Shown: one piece after another, positions 2,067 to 10,819 of the stretch
How the letters are laid out: the number at the start of each line of letters is the position of its first letter
Position numbering within the stretch: position 1 is the first letter of the stretch
Assembly (NCBI GenBank): GCA_019057635.1
Contig: DXJL01000106.1
Span: forward strand, 1 to 10,819
Direction of reading: 5' to 3'
Source of the DNA: Candidatus Heimdallarchaeota archaeon
GTDB lineage: Archaea; Asgardarchaeota; Heimdallarchaeia; Hodarchaeales; Hodarchaeaceae
DNA length: 10,819 nucleotides
Notes under the pieces: generated by a model
What the model was told of the DNA's origin: nothing
The model's input: the letters and a program-made list of their open reading frames with translations, nothing else
Database searches by the model: none
Made by a program: the position numbers and the translations under genes

Positions 2067-3470
2067 ATGTCCGTAGAATCAGTCTTACTTGTCTTTCCTC
2101 CTGACAAATGGGGAAACGTGGAGCGATTTTGTCAACCTCTAGGTATTCTAACATTAGCAACTATTCTAAAAAGAGAAGGTATTAAGGTAACTGTCATTGA
2201 TCTTTCTGCAGAGGGCTTTTCACCTCTAAGAATGATGAAACTCATTGCTAACGGGGATTTTACTCATATAGGTGTCACAGTTATGACACCATTCCGTAGA
2301 ATCGCCTACTCTATTTTACAAATTGCTAAAAGAGTAAACTCCAATATCACAACCTTAGCAGGAGGGCCTCATGTCACCTACATTAAAGAAAAAGTCCTTC
2401 TAGAATGTTCATATATTGATATTGCGGTAGCAGGAGAAGCAGAACAAAGGATAGTGGATATTATCCGCAATCCTGAAAAAAAGTTTTATGATTTAGGCTA
2501 TATAAAAGATATTGATGCTTTACCTTTTCCTGATCGTAGTTTTGTCAGGCATATTGAATACAACAGAATGACAAATATTTGGATAGGCGATTCAGCAAGT
2601 ATGAAGTGGGTACGGGGCTGTTCATGGCGGAAATGTCGTTTTTGTAGTAGATCCGTCTTGACAATGGCTCATCGCCAAAGATCTCCAGAAAAAATTGTTG
2701 AAGAAATTGCGATAATTCAAAACGAATTGAAGTACAAAAATATCGTCGTAATCGATGACAGCCTCCGGGTGAATTCTAAGCACACCAAAGAAGTCCTGAG
2801 ATTAAAAATTAAAGAAGGACTTGATATACCGTTCTGGTCGTTGGCCCGTGCAGATCATATTGACGAAGAGGGAGCCCGTTTGATGAGACAAGCAGGAGCT
2901 ACAGGGCTCCTAGTTGGATTAGAATCAGTTGTTCCACGTATGATTGATATGTACAAAAAGATTAGTGGAAATCCTCGTAATTGGTCGCATACACTTTCTA
3001 GGGCGTTCGACTTGGCTGATGAATATCAGTTGATTATTATTGCTACATTTATTGTTGGTGGGCCATACGAATCAGTTGAGGAAATACAAAAGACAATTGA
3101 CTTCTGCCGTACCGCAAAAATTGATATTTCTCAACCGTTTCCTTTTTTGTATTTAATAGGGTCTGATTTTTGGCAGCAGGCAGTATCGAATGGAAATATA
3201 AAACCCGATCAGTATTATTCCTATAATGATAGAAGTTTTGGTACGACTGAGCTTACTACAGAGGAAATTTTCGATCTTGTCTTAAAAGCTGAATTTATCA
3301 CAAATTCCCCCCTAATAAATCCATCACGTTATGTTAGATTAATTCGTAAATTGGTTAAACAGAAGAATTGGTCACTGATAGGACAGAATATTTTACGATT
3401 ACCTCTAATCATCAAGGATGTCTGGGGACAACATACATATGAGATAGTGCCAGAGGAACTCCATGAATAA
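2067..3470 (+). CDS. Cobalamin (B12)-binding domain radical SAM protein, probable class B methyltransferase-like enzyme, 467 aa
   Basis: N-terminal B12-binding domain motifs (QPLGILTLATILKREGIKVTVID, GGPHVT, GEAE, LPFPDR); RGCSWRKCRFC cluster motif at 2619-2645; RSPEKIVEEI, IDD, VGLES, FIVGGPYES radical SAM core motifs. Confidence 0.92.
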   Translation: MSVESVLLVFPPDKWGNVERFCQPLGILTLATILKREGIKVTVIDLSAEGFSPLRMMKLIANGDFTHIGVTVMTPFRRIAYSILQIAKRVNSNITTLAGGPHVTYIKEKVLLECSYIDIAVAGEAEQRIVDIIRNPEKKFYDLGYIKDIDALPFPDRSFVRHIEYNRMTNIWIGDSASMKWVRGCSWRKCRFCSRSVLTMAHRQRSPEKIVEEIAIIQNELKYKNIVVIDDSLRVNSKHTKEVLRLKIKEGLDIPFWSLARADHIDEEGARLMRQAGATGLLVGLESVVPRMIDMYKKISGNPRNWSHTLSRAFDLADEYQLIIIATFIVGGPYESVEEIQKTIDFCRTAKIDISQPFPFLYLIGSDFWQQAVSNGNIKPDQYYSYNDRSFGTTELTTEEIFDLVLKAEFITNSPLINPSRYVRLIRKLVKQKNWSLIGQNILRLPLIIKDVWGQHTYEIVPEELHE

Positions 3471-3799: not shown

Positions 3800-6370
3800 A
3801 TGACGAGTATTGATCTCCTAACAAACCCGATGAACTTTCTTGTCTCAATCGTATTAACTTTAACTCCACTAATAGTTCTATTTATTCCGTACTTATATAC
3901 AAGGCGAAAATCAGAAAATTTCTTAGCAATAATTTATAATCGTGCTTATATCGGCTTTGTTGTTTTCTATATCGCTTATTTCATATTTCCAAGTATCTTG
4001 AATTCGTTTGTACCAGATCCGAATCAATTCATTGATCAAGAATACTATCCCATAGCTGGAACATCAGGCTGGACCACTTTATGGGATTCAGAATCGGTAA
4101 TTACTCAAGGAGCAATATCTGCGCCTATACCACTTCTTATCAAGTATTTATTTGGACATATTGCCAATTCAATAGTTATCTACCTTAGTTATCCTATAGT
4201 AATTCTTGCTTTTGTCTTTGGGATCTCACCTATATTATCCATGACAATTCTTTTTTACCAAACTTGGACTGAGAAGCGGAATGAGATATCTCCTATAAAG
4301 AAACTGATAAAACGCAATAAAAATGAGATTTCACTACTTCGAAAGCAACTGAAGAAAGCTAGCGAATTAGAGGCATATGAAAAGAACGCTGCTCTTACCG
4401 AATTTGAAACTGAAAATAAAGATTTAGAAAACCAACTCTCGGAAGTAAGATCTATTTCTCAGAGACTTCAGGAGATACAATTTGAGCTCGAGACTTCTCC
4501 CTTTCGTGAGGTAATGAAACGGGTAAAAGAAAAGAATTGGGAAAATGAAAAAGAATTATTGAAGGTACTAATTGCGATATTACCCATAACTCTGTTTCTT
4601 CTGATGACAATTTTACAACTCCTCGGGGAGACTGAAAATCCAAGTTTACTCCAAGGAACATCGATGGGGTGGTTTTTAGAAATATATTTTGCCTATATAG
4701 CAACTTTAGTATTCAGTATATATCTAATAAAGGCCAGCCATTTGTCAAGGAAGGGTAAATTTTTAGGTAACCAATTATATGTAACAATGGTTCAAAGTTT
4801 ATCTACTGTTGGAGCTTTTATGTCAGGTTTGGCTGTCATTTTGTTCCTCGTACAATATTTCGATCAGATATTTGTGGTGTCGTACTTTATTGTCTATTTC
4901 ATTATGGTATCATTGTTTTTCGTTCTCTTTTTAGATATATTCGAACCATTTTCAATTTATCTATTGCTTAAACTTATAGAAAGCTTTAAATCTATTAAAA
5001 TTTCAACAGCTCGTTTCAACAGGATAAATATAGCTAAAGGAACGGTTTCTGGTATTTTGGTTGGTTTTCTCCTCTCTGTTGGTTTTTTAACATATTTAGT
5101 TATTGTTAAAAATATTTTCACGAATTTTGATACCGTTCAGTACGCGACCTTCTTTTGGTTAACTCAAAATTATGCAAGTTTTCTGTTAAGTGCTACATTA
5201 GTCTTAGTCATTCGTAGATGGAATTGGAGCGTCATTGGGACAAGCATCGTCACCTACCTTTCAATCTTATTTGTGAGCCTTTTTTTGTTTGGTTGGTACA
5301 ACGAGGGTTGGTATACTATACTAGGTTTCTCTGCAGGCGATGCATATCCTAATTATCAGAATGAGATACTGGTGTATCCTTTTCTACAGGCAACATCCGT
5401 TTTGGGGTACATTGATTTGAATTGGTTAACCGCAGTCTGGAAAGGTGGGACATTCGGGGGGTATCAATTCATTCTACCTGAACTTCGACAAATACCTGTG
5501 ATTTGGCAAGGATCGGGAGGGCAGTTTCTCCAAATTCTCTCTATCCCCTTTAATCTCTTTCATCCGTTGGCCGTCATCCTCGTTTACGGGGGAATTTTAT
5601 TCCTTGCAGGAAAACAATTCCACGTACGAACACAAAAAGGTGAGGAAAAAACTCAGTATAAATCAATTTTTTCCGATGTTACACGATTACCGAGTGTGGG
5701 TGAGCTAGAAAAGAAAGCTGACATATTGTTGATTGCCGCTACTCCCTCTAAAGATGAAGATACTGAGAAATTAGTTTCAAAAGCATGGATGAATTCAGAG
5801 AAAGGTGAAGTGATCCGAAATGCAATCACAGGTCATATGCTAACTATTTCTCAGTTAACAGAGAATATTGGGATCTCTATCAGTGAGGTCCATTCGATTC
5901 TCGATGAGGTTACCTATGATGCTGAAGTATCCTTTAGTCAAATCATAACCCTCTGGCATCGTGAATTCTCTTATTCTTTCGAAGAAGCAACCATCGATTC
6001 ACTCCACGTAATGATGTTGGATGGACGTGCTGTTCTTTCGCATACTTTCGCAGAAGAATCGCAAGTGGAACCAGCACTGGTGGCTGGGTTGTTCTCTGCT
6101 ATTACTTCTTTCGCAAAAGAAGCTGTTCGGAGTGAACAACTCCTCAAGACTATTGATCACGGTGATGTTGTTCTAACAATCGAATATGCGAACTGGGTAT
6201 TTGCTGCAATATTTGCAGACAGTACCTCAACCGAATTACGTAAAAAATTAGGCGAATTTTTGAACGACTTTGAAACGAGGCATAAGAAGACGCTTCCCAA
6301 GTGGTTAGGAGACTTAGATGCGTTTGCAGGAGAAACAAATACAATACAAGATCTTTTCCCAGGAGCATGA
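3800..6370 (+). CDS. Polytopic membrane protein with cytoplasmic coiled coil, HTH-like segment and C-terminal Asgard-type longin domain, 856 aa
   Basis: Roughly 11-13 hydrophobic segments by eye; K/E-rich heptad region at about aa 155-250; LTISQLTENIGISISEVHSILDEV resembles an HTH; aa ~732-856 (5993-6370) shows the longin pattern IDSLHVMMLDGRAVLSHTF...EPALVAGLFSAITSFAKE...LRKKLGEFLNDFETRH...WLGDLDAF. Confidence 0.85.
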   Translation: MTSIDLLTNPMNFLVSIVLTLTPLIVLFIPYLYTRRKSENFLAIIYNRAYIGFVVFYIAYFIFPSILNSFVPDPNQFIDQEYYPIAGTSGWTTLWDSESVITQGAISAPIPLLIKYLFGHIANSIVIYLSYPIVILAFVFGISPILSMTILFYQTWTEKRNEISPIKKLIKRNKNEISLLRKQLKKASELEAYEKNAALTEFETENKDLENQLSEVRSISQRLQEIQFELETSPFREVMKRVKEKNWENEKELLKVLIAILPITLFLLMTILQLLGETENPSLLQGTSMGWFLEIYFAYIATLVFSIYLIKASHLSRKGKFLGNQLYVTMVQSLSTVGAFMSGLAVILFLVQYFDQIFVVSYFIVYFIMVSLFFVLFLDIFEPFSIYLLLKLIESFKSIKISTARFNRINIAKGTVSGILVGFLLSVGFLTYLVIVKNIFTNFDTVQYATFFWLTQNYASFLLSATLVLVIRRWNWSVIGTSIVTYLSILFVSLFLFGWYNEGWYTILGFSAGDAYPNYQNEILVYPFLQATSVLGYIDLNWLTAVWKGGTFGGYQFILPELRQIPVIWQGSGGQFLQILSIPFNLFHPLAVILVYGGILFLAGKQFHVRTQKGEEKTQYKSIFSDVTRLPSVGELEKKADILLIAATPSKDEDTEKLVSKAWMNSEKGEVIRNAITGHMLTISQLTENIGISISEVHSILDEVTYDAEVSFSQIITLWHREFSYSFEEATIDSLHVMMLDGRAVLSHTFAEESQVEPALVAGLFSAITSFAKEAVRSEQLLKTIDHGDVVLTIEYANWVFAAIFADSTSTELRKKLGEFLNDFETRHKKTLPKWLGDLDAFAGETNTIQDLFPGA
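4280..4363 (+). repeat. Degenerate 42-bp (14-aa) tandem unit inside the coiled coil
   Basis: NEISPIKKLIKRNK (4280-4321) followed by NEISLLRKQLKKAS (4322-4363); both begin aatgagat. Confidence 0.4.
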
Positions 6371-6390
6371 CTTTTAGGTCTCAGAAAAGC

Positions 6391-6417
6391 CCTCTTCTCA
6401 TTTTTTTTCTTCCTTTC
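6391..6417 (+). terminator. Pyrimidine/T-rich terminator in the convergent intergenic gap
   Basis: tctcttctcattttttttcttcctttc begins 20 nt after the TGA of the membrane protein gene. Confidence 0.55.
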
Positions 6418-6459
6418 ATGTTTAAAAAGGTAACACACACTTCAAGTGAGGTTTATCGT

Positions 6460-9093
6460 TTAGTCTAGCTGTGCAATGACGCAGAGATATTTATGTGAAT
6501 TATACAATGATATCGATACGACTAATTCGGCACTTCCTGATGAAATAATAAATTTAGGTCCTTTCAAAGGATTGGTAGCTTTTGTAATTGTTTTGAAACC
6601 AGCCTTGGACAATAAATTTAAGCTTTTAACTAGTTCTGGTTCAGAATAAACACTTGTATTAGGTGTATTGTCTTTTAGTTTAATATTTGACTCAAAGATG
6701 ATATCTCGGATTAATATATCCTCTTTGAGCTGATCTGGTAAACTGCTCTCATGGATTTCTGCTACTATTTGTGTTACCCATTCAGAAGTTGTATCGTCCG
6801 CTTGGCTAGAAAGAGATTCAGTGGGGAGTTCATCTTCCTGGAGGGATTGTAAGCTCGATTTTTTGTATTCAGTAACAATTGCACTTTCATCAGATACATC
6901 GTTGGCATCAAAATTAGGTAATCTTCGGTTTGGATCTAGTGGAACTAATAAATCCCCTCTGAATAGGTTTAGAAGATTTTTAAAAATTTCTATGTACTTG
7001 AATTTAGAACTCAAAAGGCCGTGATTTACTATTTCTTTTAAAAATAATCCTTCTGAACTTGCTAATTTATTGCTCTGTTCCTGAATAACTTGGACAAGCT
7101 GGTTGTCAGTCATTCCATTTTCTCTAGCTGTCTTAAGCTTGAGTGGGCCTAATATTGATAAACCTAGAAATTGATCTAAATCATCAATGACTGCTTCAAA
7201 TGGATCAAGTTCTCCCAAAAAGTCCGTGAGGAGCTTATGAAATTTTTTTTCAAATGAATATACAAATTCTCGACCTCGTTTTCTCAAACGTTTACCGAAT
7301 TTTGGAGGACGTTCTAATATTAAAGAGGTTACAGAGTAGTTTCCTTCAATAGTTATTATTTTAAAAGTCCGATCACCGATTTCCTCGGAAAAATCCCTAA
7401 TTATAGTGCGATCTTTAATTTCTTCGTCCTTCAATTCTGTAAAAAGACTTGAAATTGCGGTTAAAAATCCAGAAACTAATTGTGGATCAACTTTCAGCAT
7501 TGAAGTACCAAATTTATATAAACAAAGACCTGTGAGCTTGTGTGTAATCATTATATGCTCACAATAAAGAAGATTTACTAAATCCTTGTAATCTATTGGT
7601 TTCATGGTGATTTGTGATAGAGCTAAATCTAATTCAAAGCTATCCTCATCTTTTGGGGGATCCTGTTTTGATAATTGCCTCTCCCCAATAGGATGAGAAG
7701 AATCGAATCGGGGTATTGAATCAGGCATGGAATCCTCTTGAGGATCAACATGTTTGGTTAACCGTGCCCGAATTTGAATTTTAATAGGACTTGAGATGCC
7801 ATCTTGAAGGCCCACTATAAGAGCTTCTCCCTTTGTGAGATGAGGGAGAACTGAGACAGTATCTGTATTTATACCTTCCATTAAACGTATTTTTGTAATA
7901 TCCTTCTCAGATTTAATCCGAAGAGCCACTAAGGTATTCATATTCGCAATTATATTATCTGGCAAATCTCCTGGTCTTTGAGAAATTAATATTTCGTATA
8001 TTCCAAATTTCCTACCCTCACGTGCTATTCTAGCAAGTATGTCACTTTTTTGGGCAAATCTATGTGCTTCTTCTATAATAATAAGAATCTCTTGTTCTTT
8101 TGGTATCTTTCCATGAACCTTCATCATAAAAATTTGCGTAAGCAGCTCGTTTACTAGCATATTACGTTTTTTTTCATCAGTATATTGATCTAATCGAATG
8201 ATTGACACTTGATTTGACTGTACGAGAGAGGATACACCTAAATCCTTCGTATACACAGATTGTTTTTGAAGAATGTTAATTTTCGAAATTAAATTCTCAC
8301 GAGTTCCTGTATGGATATCTGCATCTTTAACTTTTCTTAAAATGTCCTCGAGTTTCTCAGGTTCTTGTATCAGATTTGTGAGAACATTTTCTTGAGCTGA
8401 TGATATTTCCAATAGTCTTCTTATCTTTGGTAGATCAAAATGAGTACCTAATCCAATCGAATCTTTATCAAAGACCATTAATTTTTCAGTGAAACCTTGT
8501 GGGGTATATCCTGCTCGATCGAGGTTTTTTATTTCTTTTCCTGTATTTTCTAATCCTAACCCCCAATACTCATTATGAACATCAAACAGTAGGACTGAGG
8601 CGTTATTGAATTTCAGAAGAATTTCTTCTAATAACACCCCAATGCTGTATGACTTACCAGCTCCAGTACTGGCTACACAGAGAACATGTCGTTCTAAAAA
8701 TTGGGGTGATATTAAGAATGGATCAGTTGTAGAGGGAGAAGTAATAATATCGCCTAAATATATACCATCTTCTCCATCATAGGAAATAATCCTTGAAACC
8801 AATCCTTTAGGAGGAATAGATATCTCAGAATCCATTGAAACAGGAATTCGACATGTAGATAAGCGAAATTCATCCATTTCAAACTCCCCAAGAATAATTG
8901 CAATCCCTTTCATCTCATTCGCTTTTTCTTGAGATAATCTACTAACTTGTGCTAATAAATGTTTATTAGTTGATCTATTTTTATCAAAAAGGATGATATA
9001 ATCTCGCTCATGAATTTTATTCTTGGTAACATCTGAAATAAAAGTGATTTGTGAAGTAGTGGTTTTTAAAATCTTCATTGGTAAATCAACCAA
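6460..9093 (-). CDS. HerA/DUF87-family P-loop ATPase fused to longin domain, winged-helix-like segment and additional C-terminal domain (877 aa from TTG 9093; 872 aa if ATG 9078)
   Basis: HAS-barrel-like N-terminus; RHVLCVASTGAGKSY Walker A (8650-8673); LLFDVHNEY; LIIIEEAHRF Walker B (8062-8085); IAREGRKFG arginine-finger motif; ISQRPGDL; GEALIVG. Longin pattern at aa ~511-643 (7165-7563): HIMITHKLTGLCLY...DPQLVSGFLTAISSLFTE...FVYSFEKKF...FLGELDPF. Confidence 0.9.
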   Translation of the reverse strand: MVDLPMKILKTTTSQITFISDVTKNKIHERDYIILFDKNRSTNKHLLAQVSRLSQEKANEMKGIAIILGEFEMDEFRLSTCRIPVSMDSEISIPPKGLVSRIISYDGEDGIYLGDIITSPSTTDPFLISPQFLERHVLCVASTGAGKSYSIGVLLEEILLKFNNASVLLFDVHNEYWGLGLENTGKEIKNLDRAGYTPQGFTEKLMVFDKDSIGLGTHFDLPKIRRLLEISSAQENVLTNLIQEPEKLEDILRKVKDADIHTGTRENLISKINILQKQSVYTKDLGVSSLVQSNQVSIIRLDQYTDEKKRNMLVNELLTQIFMMKVHGKIPKEQEILIIIEEAHRFAQKSDILARIAREGRKFGIYEILISQRPGDLPDNIIANMNTLVALRIKSEKDITKIRLMEGINTDTVSVLPHLTKGEALIVGLQDGISSPIKIQIRARLTKHVDPQEDSMPDSIPRFDSSHPIGERQLSKQDPPKDEDSFELDLALSQITMKPIDYKDLVNLLYCEHIMITHKLTGLCLYKFGTSMLKVDPQLVSGFLTAISSLFTELKDEEIKDRTIIRDFSEEIGDRTFKIITIEGNYSVTSLILERPPKFGKRLRKRGREFVYSFEKKFHKLLTDFLGELDPFEAVIDDLDQFLGLSILGPLKLKTARENGMTDNQLVQVIQEQSNKLASSEGLFLKEIVNHGLLSSKFKYIEIFKNLLNLFRGDLLVPLDPNRRLPNFDANDVSDESAIVTEYKKSSLQSLQEDELPTESLSSQADDTTSEWVTQIVAEIHESSLPDQLKEDILIRDIIFESNIKLKDNTPNTSVYSEPELVKSLNLLSKAGFKTITKATNPLKGPKFIISSGSAELVVSISLYNSHKYLCVIAQLD

Positions 9094-9570: not shown

Positions 9571-10524
9571 GTGGGCACAGATTCTTCGAAATATGATATG
9601 ATAATCGTTGGTGCAGGGCCTGCAGGTATGGCCACAGCAATTTATGCTTCGAGAATGGGCTGGAACACGATTGTATTAGATAAGGGAGCAGTTGGTGGAT
9701 TAGCGGCAACTACGCCTATTATTGAGAATTATCCTGGTTTTAGCGAAATTTCGGGTATGGAATTTGCAGAGAGGCTTAGAAAACAGGCTGAAAAATTCGG
9801 TGCTGTTATAAAAGAACTAATTGAGGTTACTGATATTACTGTGGGAGAATCTAAAGTCGAAGTTCATACTCCTTCAGAAAAATATACTGCAAAGGTTATT
9901 GTTCTAGCTACTGGTACTGCTCACCGTCATCTTGGTGTTCCCGGGGAAGAAGAATTAGAGGGAAAAGGAGTTTCTTATTGTGCAACATGTGATGGTCCCT
10001 TATATGGATCGAGAAAAGTGATAGTTGTCGGCGGGGGTAATTCTGCGGTCACAGAAGCCCTTTATCTTGACAAAGTTGTTCGAGAAGTTTCGCTAATTCA
10101 TCGTCGGGATCAATTACGAGCAGAGGAATCCCTCCAGAAGCAAATATTAGAAAATTCTAACGTAAAAATGATCTGGGATTCAGTAGTAATAGAAATTAGT
10201 GGGGATGAGATGGCAGGAGTAAAGAAAGTTACAATAAAGAATGTGAAAACTGGGGAAGAGCAACAATTACGAATCAAAGCTGTATTTGTAGCTATTGGAA
10301 TTTTACCAAATAATGAGTTAGCAAAAAAGATCGGAGTAAAATTAACCGTTGATGGATTAATAGAGGTGGATTCGAACCAACGTACAAATATTCCACGAGT
10401 TTACGCTTGTGGTGATATTACTCCAGGCCAGGGGCAGATTTCGGTGGCGGTTGGAGAAGGAACCACTGCAGCTATCTCCGCATTCCTAGATATGCGTGGT
10501 GGAGACTGGTACGGGAACGAATAA
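9571..10524 (+). CDS. trxB: Thioredoxin-disulfide reductase (low molecular weight, NADPH-type), 317 aa
   Basis: GAGPAG FAD-binding motif, IENYPGF, GVSYCATCDG redox CxxC (9979-9990), GGGNSA nucleotide-binding motif, HRRD 2'-phosphate motif, TNIPRVYACGD, AVGEG. Confidence 0.96.
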   Translation: MGTDSSKYDMIIVGAGPAGMATAIYASRMGWNTIVLDKGAVGGLAATTPIIENYPGFSEISGMEFAERLRKQAEKFGAVIKELIEVTDITVGESKVEVHTPSEKYTAKVIVLATGTAHRHLGVPGEEELEGKGVSYCATCDGPLYGSRKVIVVGGGNSAVTEALYLDKVVREVSLIHRRDQLRAEESLQKQILENSNVKMIWDSVVIEISGDEMAGVKKVTIKNVKTGEEQQLRIKAVFVAIGILPNNELAKKIGVKLTVDGLIEVDSNQRTNIPRVYACGDITPGQGQISVAVGEGTTAAISAFLDMRGGDWYGNE

Positions 10525-10542: not shown

Positions 10543-10819
10543 TTGTTGCCGTCTGAACTAAATAAAACATCAATAGGATTGCATAAATTTTCCCATCATT
10601 TTTCGGCTTCTCACTTATTGTTGACCGAGGATTTTACCGAAGGATTACATGGTCATAATTATTATGTTGAAATAGAACTAATTGGGAATGTAAATGATGA
10701 TGGGATGGTATTTAATTTTCTTTCATTAGATGAATCTCTTAGTAATATTATTTCTACATGGGATCATTATACACTACTTCCTAGCATGAATAAAGACCTT
10801 AAAATTAAAGAAAACGGAA
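10543..10819 (+). CDS. 6-pyruvoyl-tetrahydropterin synthase/QueD family protein, PTPS-III type motif, 3'-truncated by window end
   Basis: Not in the ORF track. My translation: (M)LPSELNKTSIGLHKFSHHFSASHLLLTEDFTEGLHGHNYYVEIELIGNVNDDGMVFNFLSLDESLSNIISTWDHYTLLPSMNKDLKIKENG. FSASH, LHGHNY, GMVxxF and WDHxxL are family motifs. Start is TTG at 10543 or 10546 (in-frame TGA at 10540-10542). Confidence 0.9.
   Translation, partial: MLPSELNKTSIGLHKFSHHFSASHLLLTEDFTEGLHGHNYYVEIELIGNVNDDGMVFNFLSLDESLSNIISTWDHYTLLPSMNKDLKIKENG

Follow-up and report, generated by a model that had tools for sequence, protein, structure and literature searches.

Longins of solved structure include synbindin/TRAPPC4, Sec22b, VAMP7, sedlin, the SRX domain of the SRP receptor and the N-terminal domains of AP sigma and mu, together with the Roadblock-Longin protein 8yqg of the Lokiarchaeota. 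In GATOR1, with its subunits NPRL2/NPRL3, and in the tri-longin RabGEFs (Mon1-Ccz1, Fuzzy-Inturned), paired longin subunits act on small GTPases. The HerA-clade ATPases include the archaeal HerA of the HerA-NurA end-resection machine (PDB 4d2i, 9x1l), and in crenarchaeal Ced DNA import the membrane protein CedA is found with a HerA-like ATPase. Unlike the known longins, the two in the locus described here are fused to a HerA ATPase in one protein and to a polytopic membrane protein in its neighbor. No description of the HerA-longin fusion or of the membrane-longin family was found in the literature searched, as far as its text was accessible.

A convergent gene pair and its common domain

The window, meaning the whole stretch of DNA that was analysed (10,819 nucleotides of a Candidatus Heimdallarchaeota genome), carries the two genes tail to tail:

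3800..6370, + strand: gene for the polytopic membrane protein with C-terminal longin; open ORF, 856 aa
6371..6459, no strand: 89-bp spacer separating the stop codons, containing oligo-T runs (T8 on the + strand, T5 on the - strand)
6460..9093, - strand: gene for the HerA-type ATPase with longin tail; open ORF, 877 aa from a TTG or 872 aa from an ATG at 9078

The ATG at 9078 is the likely start of the ATPase, and the database copy of this protein has 872 aa. Near-identical database proteins carry Asgard source names, in agreement with an Asgard origin of the DNA. The oligo-T runs of the spacer are putative archaeal terminators.

The domain common to the two proteins covers around 120-130 aa. 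A direct BLASTP comparison aligns aa 755-844 of the membrane protein with aa 534-634 of the ATPase (E 1e-6, 28% identity, 102 columns), and a profile-profile comparison of the ortholog alignments with hhalign extends the match to 117 columns (aa 736-853 against aa 513-643; probability 94%, E 1.4e-7). A helix-1 signature is also common to both copies. An earlier note on this DNA had described convergent neighbors sharing a homologous domain, with the caveat that they do not form an operon; the gap and both comparisons agree with the description, and the genes are indeed separate convergent transcription units. The Pfam longin-type families (Longin, Sybindin, Sedlin_N, Clat_adaptor_s and SRX) match neither the whole proteins nor the isolated domains at E<=10.

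The HerA-type ATPase and its longin tail

The following features are found in the ATPase:

7759..8763, - strand: HerA/FtsK-type RecA-like ATPase core (aa 111-445), from Pfam DUF87, PDB HerA chains and motifs
7144..7596, - strand: longin domain (aa 500-650), from AF2 topology, VIA and Foldseek
6937..7143, - strand: winged-helix-like domain of three helices and a strand (aa 651-719), from the secondary structure of the model, pLDDT about 75-87
6463..6783, - strand: C-terminal alpha/beta domain (aa 771-877), model residues 317-423, pLDDT about 66-88

The assignment to the HerA type, already made in the earlier note, is supported. The core matches the Pfam DUF87/HerA central domain over aa 113-274 at 1.4e-16 (61.7 bits against a cut-off of 23.2), with weaker matches to AAA_10, HerA_C and FtsK_SpoIIIE, and it matches solved HerA chains in the PDB at 8.4e-26 to 1.3e-21. 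The Walker A, Walker B (EE) and QRPGD motifs are invariant among the orthologs that cover each of them; the roles of these motifs, including that of the arginine-finger region, we take to be those known for the family. The core (72%) and the longin (69%) are the most conserved regions of the protein. Judged by its conserved motifs, the ATPase is a catalytically intact, NurA-less member of the HerA clade. With the HerA of the end-resection machine it has in common the DUF87/HerA core, Walker A, Walker B and the QRP motif, but it has no adjacent NurA, scores far below the equivalog cut-offs and carries an extension of some 430 aa past the HerA core, made up of the longin, the winged-helix-like domain and the C-terminal domain. 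A canonical NurA-HerA pair, in which NurA accompanies another DUF87 gene, is found on a different contig of the same genome.

The ATPase might also be viewed as a defence-type or DNA-repair HerA, in which the tail would be only regulatory and unrelated to membranes. PADLOC HerA models match it down to 3.1e-36, in a table that gives no curated cut-off, and the HerA proteins of the Sir2-HerA and DUF4297-HerA systems are among its nearest solved chains. The NCBIfam anti-phage HerA models also reach 66-79 bits, but their cut-offs are widely missed (79 against 850, 66 against 800), as are those of the DNA-repair equivalogs NF040819 and NF040937 (100 against 970 and 80.5 against 800 bits). Genes for Sir2, DUF4297, NurA or other nucleases are absent next to the ATPase gene, both in the window and in the conserved block around it, and we consider this view very unlikely. 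With the Ced system the pair has in common the idea of a polytopic membrane protein and a HerA-clade ATPase that work together, and CedD matches the ATPase core weakly. However, CedD reaches 63 bits where the cut-off is 600, the membrane protein matches no NCBIfam family, and no evidence of coupling was found.

In the AF2 model the ATPase longin has the topology b-b-a-b-b-b-a-a, with a five-stranded antiparallel sheet (b1-b2-a1-b3-b4-b5-a2-a3). VIA matches it to synbindin (Z 12.2, rmsd 2.7, 119 aligned), Sec22 (Z 10.9), VAMP7 (Z 10.5) and the Lokiarchaeota longin 8yqg_B (Z 10.1), with roadblock chains below the longins at Z 7.2-7.9, and Foldseek gives a probability of 1.00 to Sec22b and AP sigma. 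The solved longins as a group have the same topology and match the whole domain at Z 9-12, aligning about 115-133 residues, although their identity to it is just 8-16% and no Pfam family matches either copy. A sequence profile search of the PDB with the ATPase-tail alignment gave no matches at E<=10. In the ESM Atlas, a stored identical homolog falls in an unnamed archaeal cluster at 0.85.

The winged-helix-like domain that follows is common to longin-winged-helix proteins of other lineages (query aa 507-721), and the search for shorter, stand-alone forms of the tail gave only three contig-end fragments. The C-terminal domain (aa 771-877) was barely covered by the VIA fold searches. For the tail as a whole, the top Foldseek rows are GATOR1 and the tri-longin RabGEFs (E 7e-4 to 2e-3), which likewise have a longin followed by small domains. 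The likeness is limited, however, by whole-tail TM-scores of about 0.2, by the lack of an NPR2/NPR3 Pfam match, by the presence of one confident longin per protein and by the absence of a neighboring GTPase.

The membrane protein

Hydropathy predicts about 11-13 TM segments followed by a 249-aa soluble tail, as expected from the earlier description of a polytopic membrane protein. Its further features are:

4253..4564, + strand: K/R- and D/E-rich loop of 104 aa (aa 152-255), with 22 K/R and 20 D/E, between TM segments
5750..5968, + strand: winged-HTH-like domain of the tail (aa 651-723), from AF2 and VIA
5972..6367, + strand: longin-type domain (aa 725-856), from homology to the ATPase longin

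The charged loop is probably a cytoplasmic coiled coil, and hydropathy and charge place the tail, with its winged-HTH-like and longin domains, in the cytoplasm. An AF2 model of the tail, built from 17 near-identical sequences, is well defined over residues 1-80 (pLDDT 71-91), which correspond to the winged-HTH-like domain. The best VIA matches of this domain are weak (Z<8): CzrA at Z 6.5 (rmsd 3.3, 63 aligned), then ArsR/PagR/HlyU at Z 5.5-5.7. The longin part of the same model appears as low-confidence helices (pLDDT<50). The earlier claim of two longin folds therefore stands for the ATPase copy, on the VIA and Foldseek comparisons of its model, and reaches the membrane-protein copy, which we infer to have the same fold, through homology only.

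No family was found for the membrane protein in Pfam, NCBIfam or PADLOC; a Pfam scan of 16 diverse relatives gave nothing above noise, and a sequence profile search of the PDB with the family alignment returned insignificant matches only (best E 0.44). The protein database assigns PF28006 to three of the relatives. A role resembling that of an archaeosortase, beside the neighboring gene for a Heimdall-CTERM surface protein, was considered and rejected: there is no Cys or His among the invariant alignment columns, and in the one sister-family relative with enough contig on that side, no surface-protein gene lies upstream.

The longin is the best-conserved part of this family, with a mean pairwise identity of 83% against 65% within the genus and 66% against 51% outside it. 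Since this holds both inside and outside the genus, the constraint on the domain is independent of the ATPase.

Distribution of the pair and its interpretation

All 22 genomes of this Hodarchaeales genus carry the HerA-longin gene, at identities as low as 45%, and have the membrane-longin gene convergent with it on the same contig. The two are immediately adjacent in 20 of these genomes and one gene apart in the remaining 2, where a radical-SAM gene separates them. The membrane gene is interrupted by a 100-N scaffold gap in one genome of the genus and by a contig end in another. A five-gene block (surface protein, membrane-longin, HerA-longin, TrxR-like, PTPS-like) is collinear wherever the contig reaches, in 20 related loci, 2 of which have the radical-SAM gene within the pair, and the thioredoxin-reductase-like, PTPS-like and Heimdall-CTERM surface-protein neighbors are as conserved within the genus as the pair itself. 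The locus is a stable core-genome block and not a variable island, which also speaks against a defence-type or repair HerA.

Full-length relatives of the membrane protein are found at 65 loci across Asgard MAGs, 43 of them outside the genus, and we take it to be an old family of the Asgard lineages. A HerA-longin gene, another longin ORF or a homolog of any window gene within 6 kb is found at none of these 43 loci. MoaE or methyltransferase genes come after the membrane-protein relatives of the sister family, where a 501-aa longin-winged-helix protein without HerA is encoded on a separate contig. In another family of the class the longin-winged-helix tail is carried by FG-GAP beta-propeller proteins, and the query used here detected no full-length relative of the membrane protein in those genomes. 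The neighbors of the Lokiarchaeia-type relatives (deacetylase-family, profilin, ABC/FtsX and cyclase genes) look like block synteny and gave no functional lead.

The longin type itself is very common. There are 21 such ORFs in this 3.19-Mb genome, including fusions to an Arf-family GTPase, an MFS transporter and TPR repeats, and the family comprises 6,995 representative clusters at E<=1e-3 (1,443 at E<=1e-10), with lengths of 118-2171 aa. The earlier warning that longins are frequent in Asgard genomes is thereby borne out, and with a domain so common, its possession by both proteins is not evidence for pairing. Only one pair of longin genes is adjacent in this genome; about 0.15 would be expected by chance for 21 ORFs, with around 3,000 genes assumed, so that a lone pair is not strongly surprising.

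The most direct way to join the two proteins would be for a HerA-type ring to dock on the membrane protein by longin heterodimerisation, giving a genus-specific, membrane-anchored translocase for DNA or protein, or a remodelling machine. The conserved convergent linkage within the genus is consistent with this, as is the predicted cytoplasmic position of the membrane-protein tail, which would make it reachable. Pairing or dimerising longins (Mon1-Ccz1, Fuzzy-Inturned and the dimeric Lokiarchaeota longin 8yqg) are also among the structural matches. An HMM of the ATPase copy ranks the membrane copy first among the paralogs of the genome (2.8e-7, the next at 6.8e-4); with an HMM of the membrane copy, four other paralogs outscore that of the ATPase. 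Against direct docking, unrelated housekeeping neighbors are equally conserved and the junction is broken in two genomes, all 43 loci of the membrane family beyond the genus do without the ATPase, the tail is present in another family of the class where the membrane-protein family is not detected, the genes are transcribed separately, and the genome offers 21 paralogous candidate partners. An uncontrolled complex prediction of the two domains (membrane protein 725-856, ATPase alignment 45-200) gave scores of 0.10 and 0.02, where the mark is 0.32, and weighs on neither side. We regard direct docking as unlikely.

The link could alternatively be indirect, with both tails binding the same third component encoded elsewhere, for example a small GTPase or a longin/roadblock adaptor, such that a particular nucleotide or signal state would be needed to bring the motor to the membrane protein. 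The helix-1 signature of the two copies and the fusion of this longin type to an Arf-family GTPase fit such an arrangement. So does the description by Liu et al. (2020, bioRxiv 10.1101/2020.10.19.343400) of extensive domain shuffling in Asgard genomes, where longin/roadblock proteins and small GTPases rank as the two largest families of the trafficking type. Conversely, no GTPase or roadblock gene is present in the window (by Pfam) or in the conserved block, and apart from adjacency nothing marks out these 2 of the 21 paralogs. We regard the indirect link as unlikely too. That in this genus a HerA-type ring motor has been captured by a longin-winged-helix adaptor and docks on the Asgard-wide membrane longin protein, either by itself or by way of a GTPase or longin partner that both bind, as a regulated membrane-bound translocase or remodelling machine, can be put forward only as an improbable proposal.

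We favor, at a probability of roughly one half, the reading that the two proteins are independent users of a very common Asgard longin-type docking domain, with no demonstrated two-gene machine. The points against independence rest on a single evolutionary event and are therefore weak, though they do point towards a link. The linkage sought by synteny and co-occurrence is present in every genome of the genus and missing at all 43 loci beyond it. The longin-coupled two-gene system of the earlier note is not supported, given an adjacency confined to the genus and a tail that occurs elsewhere without HerA; its own caveat, of a possibly coincidental adjacency, is the more convincing reading.

As independent users, the two proteins would have separate roles. 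The winged-HTH-like and longin tail of the membrane protein most likely acts on the inner membrane face as a platform for docking or regulation, and its partner would have to be present in lineages without the ATPase, for instance a small GTPase or another longin/roadblock protein. The ATPase would be a genus-restricted fusion of a HerA-clade ring ATPase to an older longin and winged-helix adaptor tail, which in other lineages is found on beta-propeller proteins or without HerA. If the ring is a hexamer, as by analogy it may be, several tails would be displayed, and whatever binds them would place or regulate the motor.

Longins belong to the eukaryote-signature modules that have expanded in the Asgard archaea. 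A HerA-clade motor with intact motifs, permanently fused to a longin-winged-helix tail, offers an expressible handle on the binding partners of archaeal longins, and an Asgard-wide membrane protein with a cytoplasmic longin as its most conserved part offers a second. Longin-longin pairing of the two is an idea, possible but with the odds well against it, for which genome comparison gave no specific sign; if true, it would show in simple archaeal form how longins can bring an ATPase to a membrane, as they do by the same logic in eukaryotic trafficking.

Gene content and the shared domain

The window contains six gene-like open reading frames of at least 80 amino acids:

54-1844, + strand: protein of 596 aa ending in a Heimdall-CTERM sorting signal, just over the cut-off of NCBIfam NF045529 (24.4 against 24 bits)
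2067-3470, + strand: B12-binding radical-SAM protein
3800-6370, + strand: P0001, an 856-aa membrane protein
6460-9093, - strand: P0002, an 877-aa ATPase (872 aa in the database copy, from the ATG at 9078)
9571-10524, + strand: thioredoxin-reductase-like flavoprotein
10543-10818, + strand: PTPS-like gene, start only

The genes for P0001 and P0002 are convergent, with their stop codons 89 bp apart, and the oligo-T runs found on both strands of this spacer may serve as separate terminators. The homologous domain that the earlier note saw in both proteins is real, and is recovered both by BLASTP (E 1e-6, 28% identity, 102 columns) and by hhalign of the two ortholog alignments (94% probability, E 1.4e-7, 117 columns). 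Within the window's genome, an HMM of the membrane copy scores four paralogs above the ATPase copy, and an HMM of the ATPase copy has the membrane copy as its top paralog.

The AF2 model of the ATPase tail, made from ortholog alignment A2 (21 sequences; mean pLDDT 68), is divided as follows:

aa ~502-643: a helix, then b-b-a-b-b-b-a-a
aa 651-719: three helices and a strand
aa 732-768: disordered linker
aa 771-877: alpha/beta domain

Comparison of this model with 48,161 chains by VIA-align places longins on top, with synbindin at Z 12.2, Sec22 at 10.9, VAMP7 at 10.5 and the Lokiarchaeota longin 8yqg_B at 10.1, followed by SRX, sedlin and AP sigma/mu, and ranks roadblock chains below the longins (Z 7.2-7.9). 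Foldseek concurs, giving Sec22b and AP sigma at a probability of 1.00, and its top rows at low TM are Mon1/Ccz1, a GATOR1 chain and Fuzzy-Inturned. The longin fold claimed for both copies is thereby upheld for the ATPase. In the AF2 model of P0001 the longin part has a pLDDT below 50, the underlying alignment is nearly invariant in that stretch, and the fold of this copy is therefore assigned by homology alone. The preceding stretch of P0001 (aa 651-723) is modeled confidently and bears a weak likeness to ArsR-type winged HTH domains (Z 5.5-6.5).

The domain is abundant. A profile built from 12 copies of the window's genome finds it in 21 ORFs of that genome and, at E<=1e-3, in 6,995 representative clusters among 1.84 billion proteins, with protein lengths of 118-2171 aa. 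The representative protein P0109, of 2,171 aa, has three matched stretches of the same longin type. In the window's genome (G000), an Arf-family GTPase (C67:19712-20689, L044; Pfam Arf 4.8e-33) carries a C-terminal longin-type domain at aa 183-318. An MFS transporter-like protein (C205:5277-6857, L036) and a TPR protein (C19:3029-5296, L043) both end in the same longin type. P0001 is thus not alone in having a membrane-anchored longin.

The membrane protein and the ATPase

Hydropathy suggests 11-13 transmembrane segments in P0001, in agreement with its description as a polytopic membrane protein, together with a charged loop of 104 aa and, behind a K/R-rich exit, a tail of 249 aa. Because of this exit, the positive-inside rule would place the tail in the cytoplasm. 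P0001 and 16 diverse relatives gave no family match in the libraries searched. Conservation within this family peaks in the longin (83% vs 65% inside the genus, 66% vs 51% outside).

P0002 was rightly called a HerA-like ATPase. DUF87 and solved HerA chains are among its matches, and its Walker A, Walker B (EE) and QRPGD stretch are identical across every ortholog covering each motif. Conservation is highest in the ATPase (72%) and longin (69%) regions and lowest in the linkers (12-33%). The HerA Walker B usually carries a D-E pair; that of P0002 reads hhhhEEAH in 21/21 sequences covering it (window 8062-8079, aa 339-344). That this ATPase serves in defence or repair, with no relation to membranes, appears very unlikely: its HerA matches stand beside scores far under every NCBIfam equivalog cut-off (repair HerA, 100 vs 970 bits; anti-phage HerA, 79 vs 850), and the NurA gene of the genome, on contig C212, is adjoined by another DUF87 gene, making P0002 an extra, NurA-less paralog. 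It also differs from the Ced system, with 63 bits against the CedD equivalog cut-off of 600 (NCBIfam).

Linkage inside and beyond the genus

A survey of 83 genomes from the class finds the ATPase in its full-length architecture in the window's genus alone, where it is present in 22/22 genomes (window counted; 45-96% identity). In each of the 22, the membrane gene shares a contig with the ATPase gene and is convergent with it; a 100-N scaffold gap interrupts one copy and a contig end cuts another. The weight of this linkage is changed by a control, namely that in 20 related loci the surface-protein, membrane-longin, HerA-longin, TrxR-like and PTPS-like genes all keep their collinearity, as one block, as far as the contigs reach. 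The adjacency of P0001 and P0002 traces to a single event within this block.

Throughout the genus the Heimdall-CTERM gene (54-1844) lies ahead of the membrane-longin gene, and it is not ahead of the membrane-protein relative in the sole sister-family locus whose contig extends upstream. The radical-SAM gene (2067-3470) is the sole mobile element of the block: the window and one relative have it upstream of the membrane gene, in two genomes (L053 4343-5740; L057 9791-11188) it separates the two longin genes, and the other loci lack it.

A scan with one genome per species gave 65 membrane-family loci. The 43 outside the genus, mostly with Promethearchaeota/Promethearchaeia labels and some with other Asgard labels, match at 27-34% identity across almost full length, and within 6 kb of these loci there is no HerA-longin, no further longin ORF and no window-gene homolog. 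The synteny check suggested across Asgard genomes thus finds the pair linked only within the genus. Direct longin-longin docking of P0002 on P0001 is unlikely when the 22/22 linkage is set beside these 43 loci, and a link made indirectly, by way of a partner common to both, is similarly improbable.

Upstream of the membrane-longin relatives outside the genus (L105-L145) lie a divergently transcribed histone-deacetylase-family gene at ~105 bp (34/43 loci) and a profilin-like gene at ~1.2 kb (28/43), probably as block synteny.

Relatives and the reading of the pair

In the sister family, MoaE or methyltransferase genes come after the membrane-protein relatives, and a 501-aa protein with the longin and winged-helix-like tail (longin-wH) of the ATPase, without HerA, is encoded on a different contig. 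In another family of the class this tail is fused to FG-GAP beta-propeller proteins, and a P0001 query found no full-length relative in those genomes. A zinc ribbon is a further fusion partner of the tail there (L070 4728-6473, L071 5508-7571, L072 6277-8043). Giant ORFs of 1,790-2,046 aa adjoin the propeller genes (e.g. L070 6613-12000); a scan of one of them gave matches to TPR and a SNAP-like family (PF14938). This combination of propeller, solenoid and longin recalls coat/adaptor parts.

Roadblock/longin asCOGs number 130 according to Liu et al. (2020, bioRxiv 10.1101/2020.10.19.343400), who also describe domain shuffling restricted to lineages and NPRL2-like longin fusions; 'HerA' is absent from the main text. 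Loki longins have neither a SNARE nor a coiled-coil domain according to Dey et al. (2016, PMC4917890), and a 2026 preprint (10.64898/2026.10.28.762692) lists longin proteins among structural clusters common to Asgard archaea and eukaryotes. The HerA-longin and membrane-longin architectures were not found described in the portions of the Asgard longin literature covered.

For both P0001 and P0002 there are close relatives that do without the other protein. Together with the single-event adjacency, this fails to bear out the longin-coupled two-gene translocase of the earlier note and therefore favors, with a probability of roughly one half, the reading that the two proteins are independent users of a common longin docking module.
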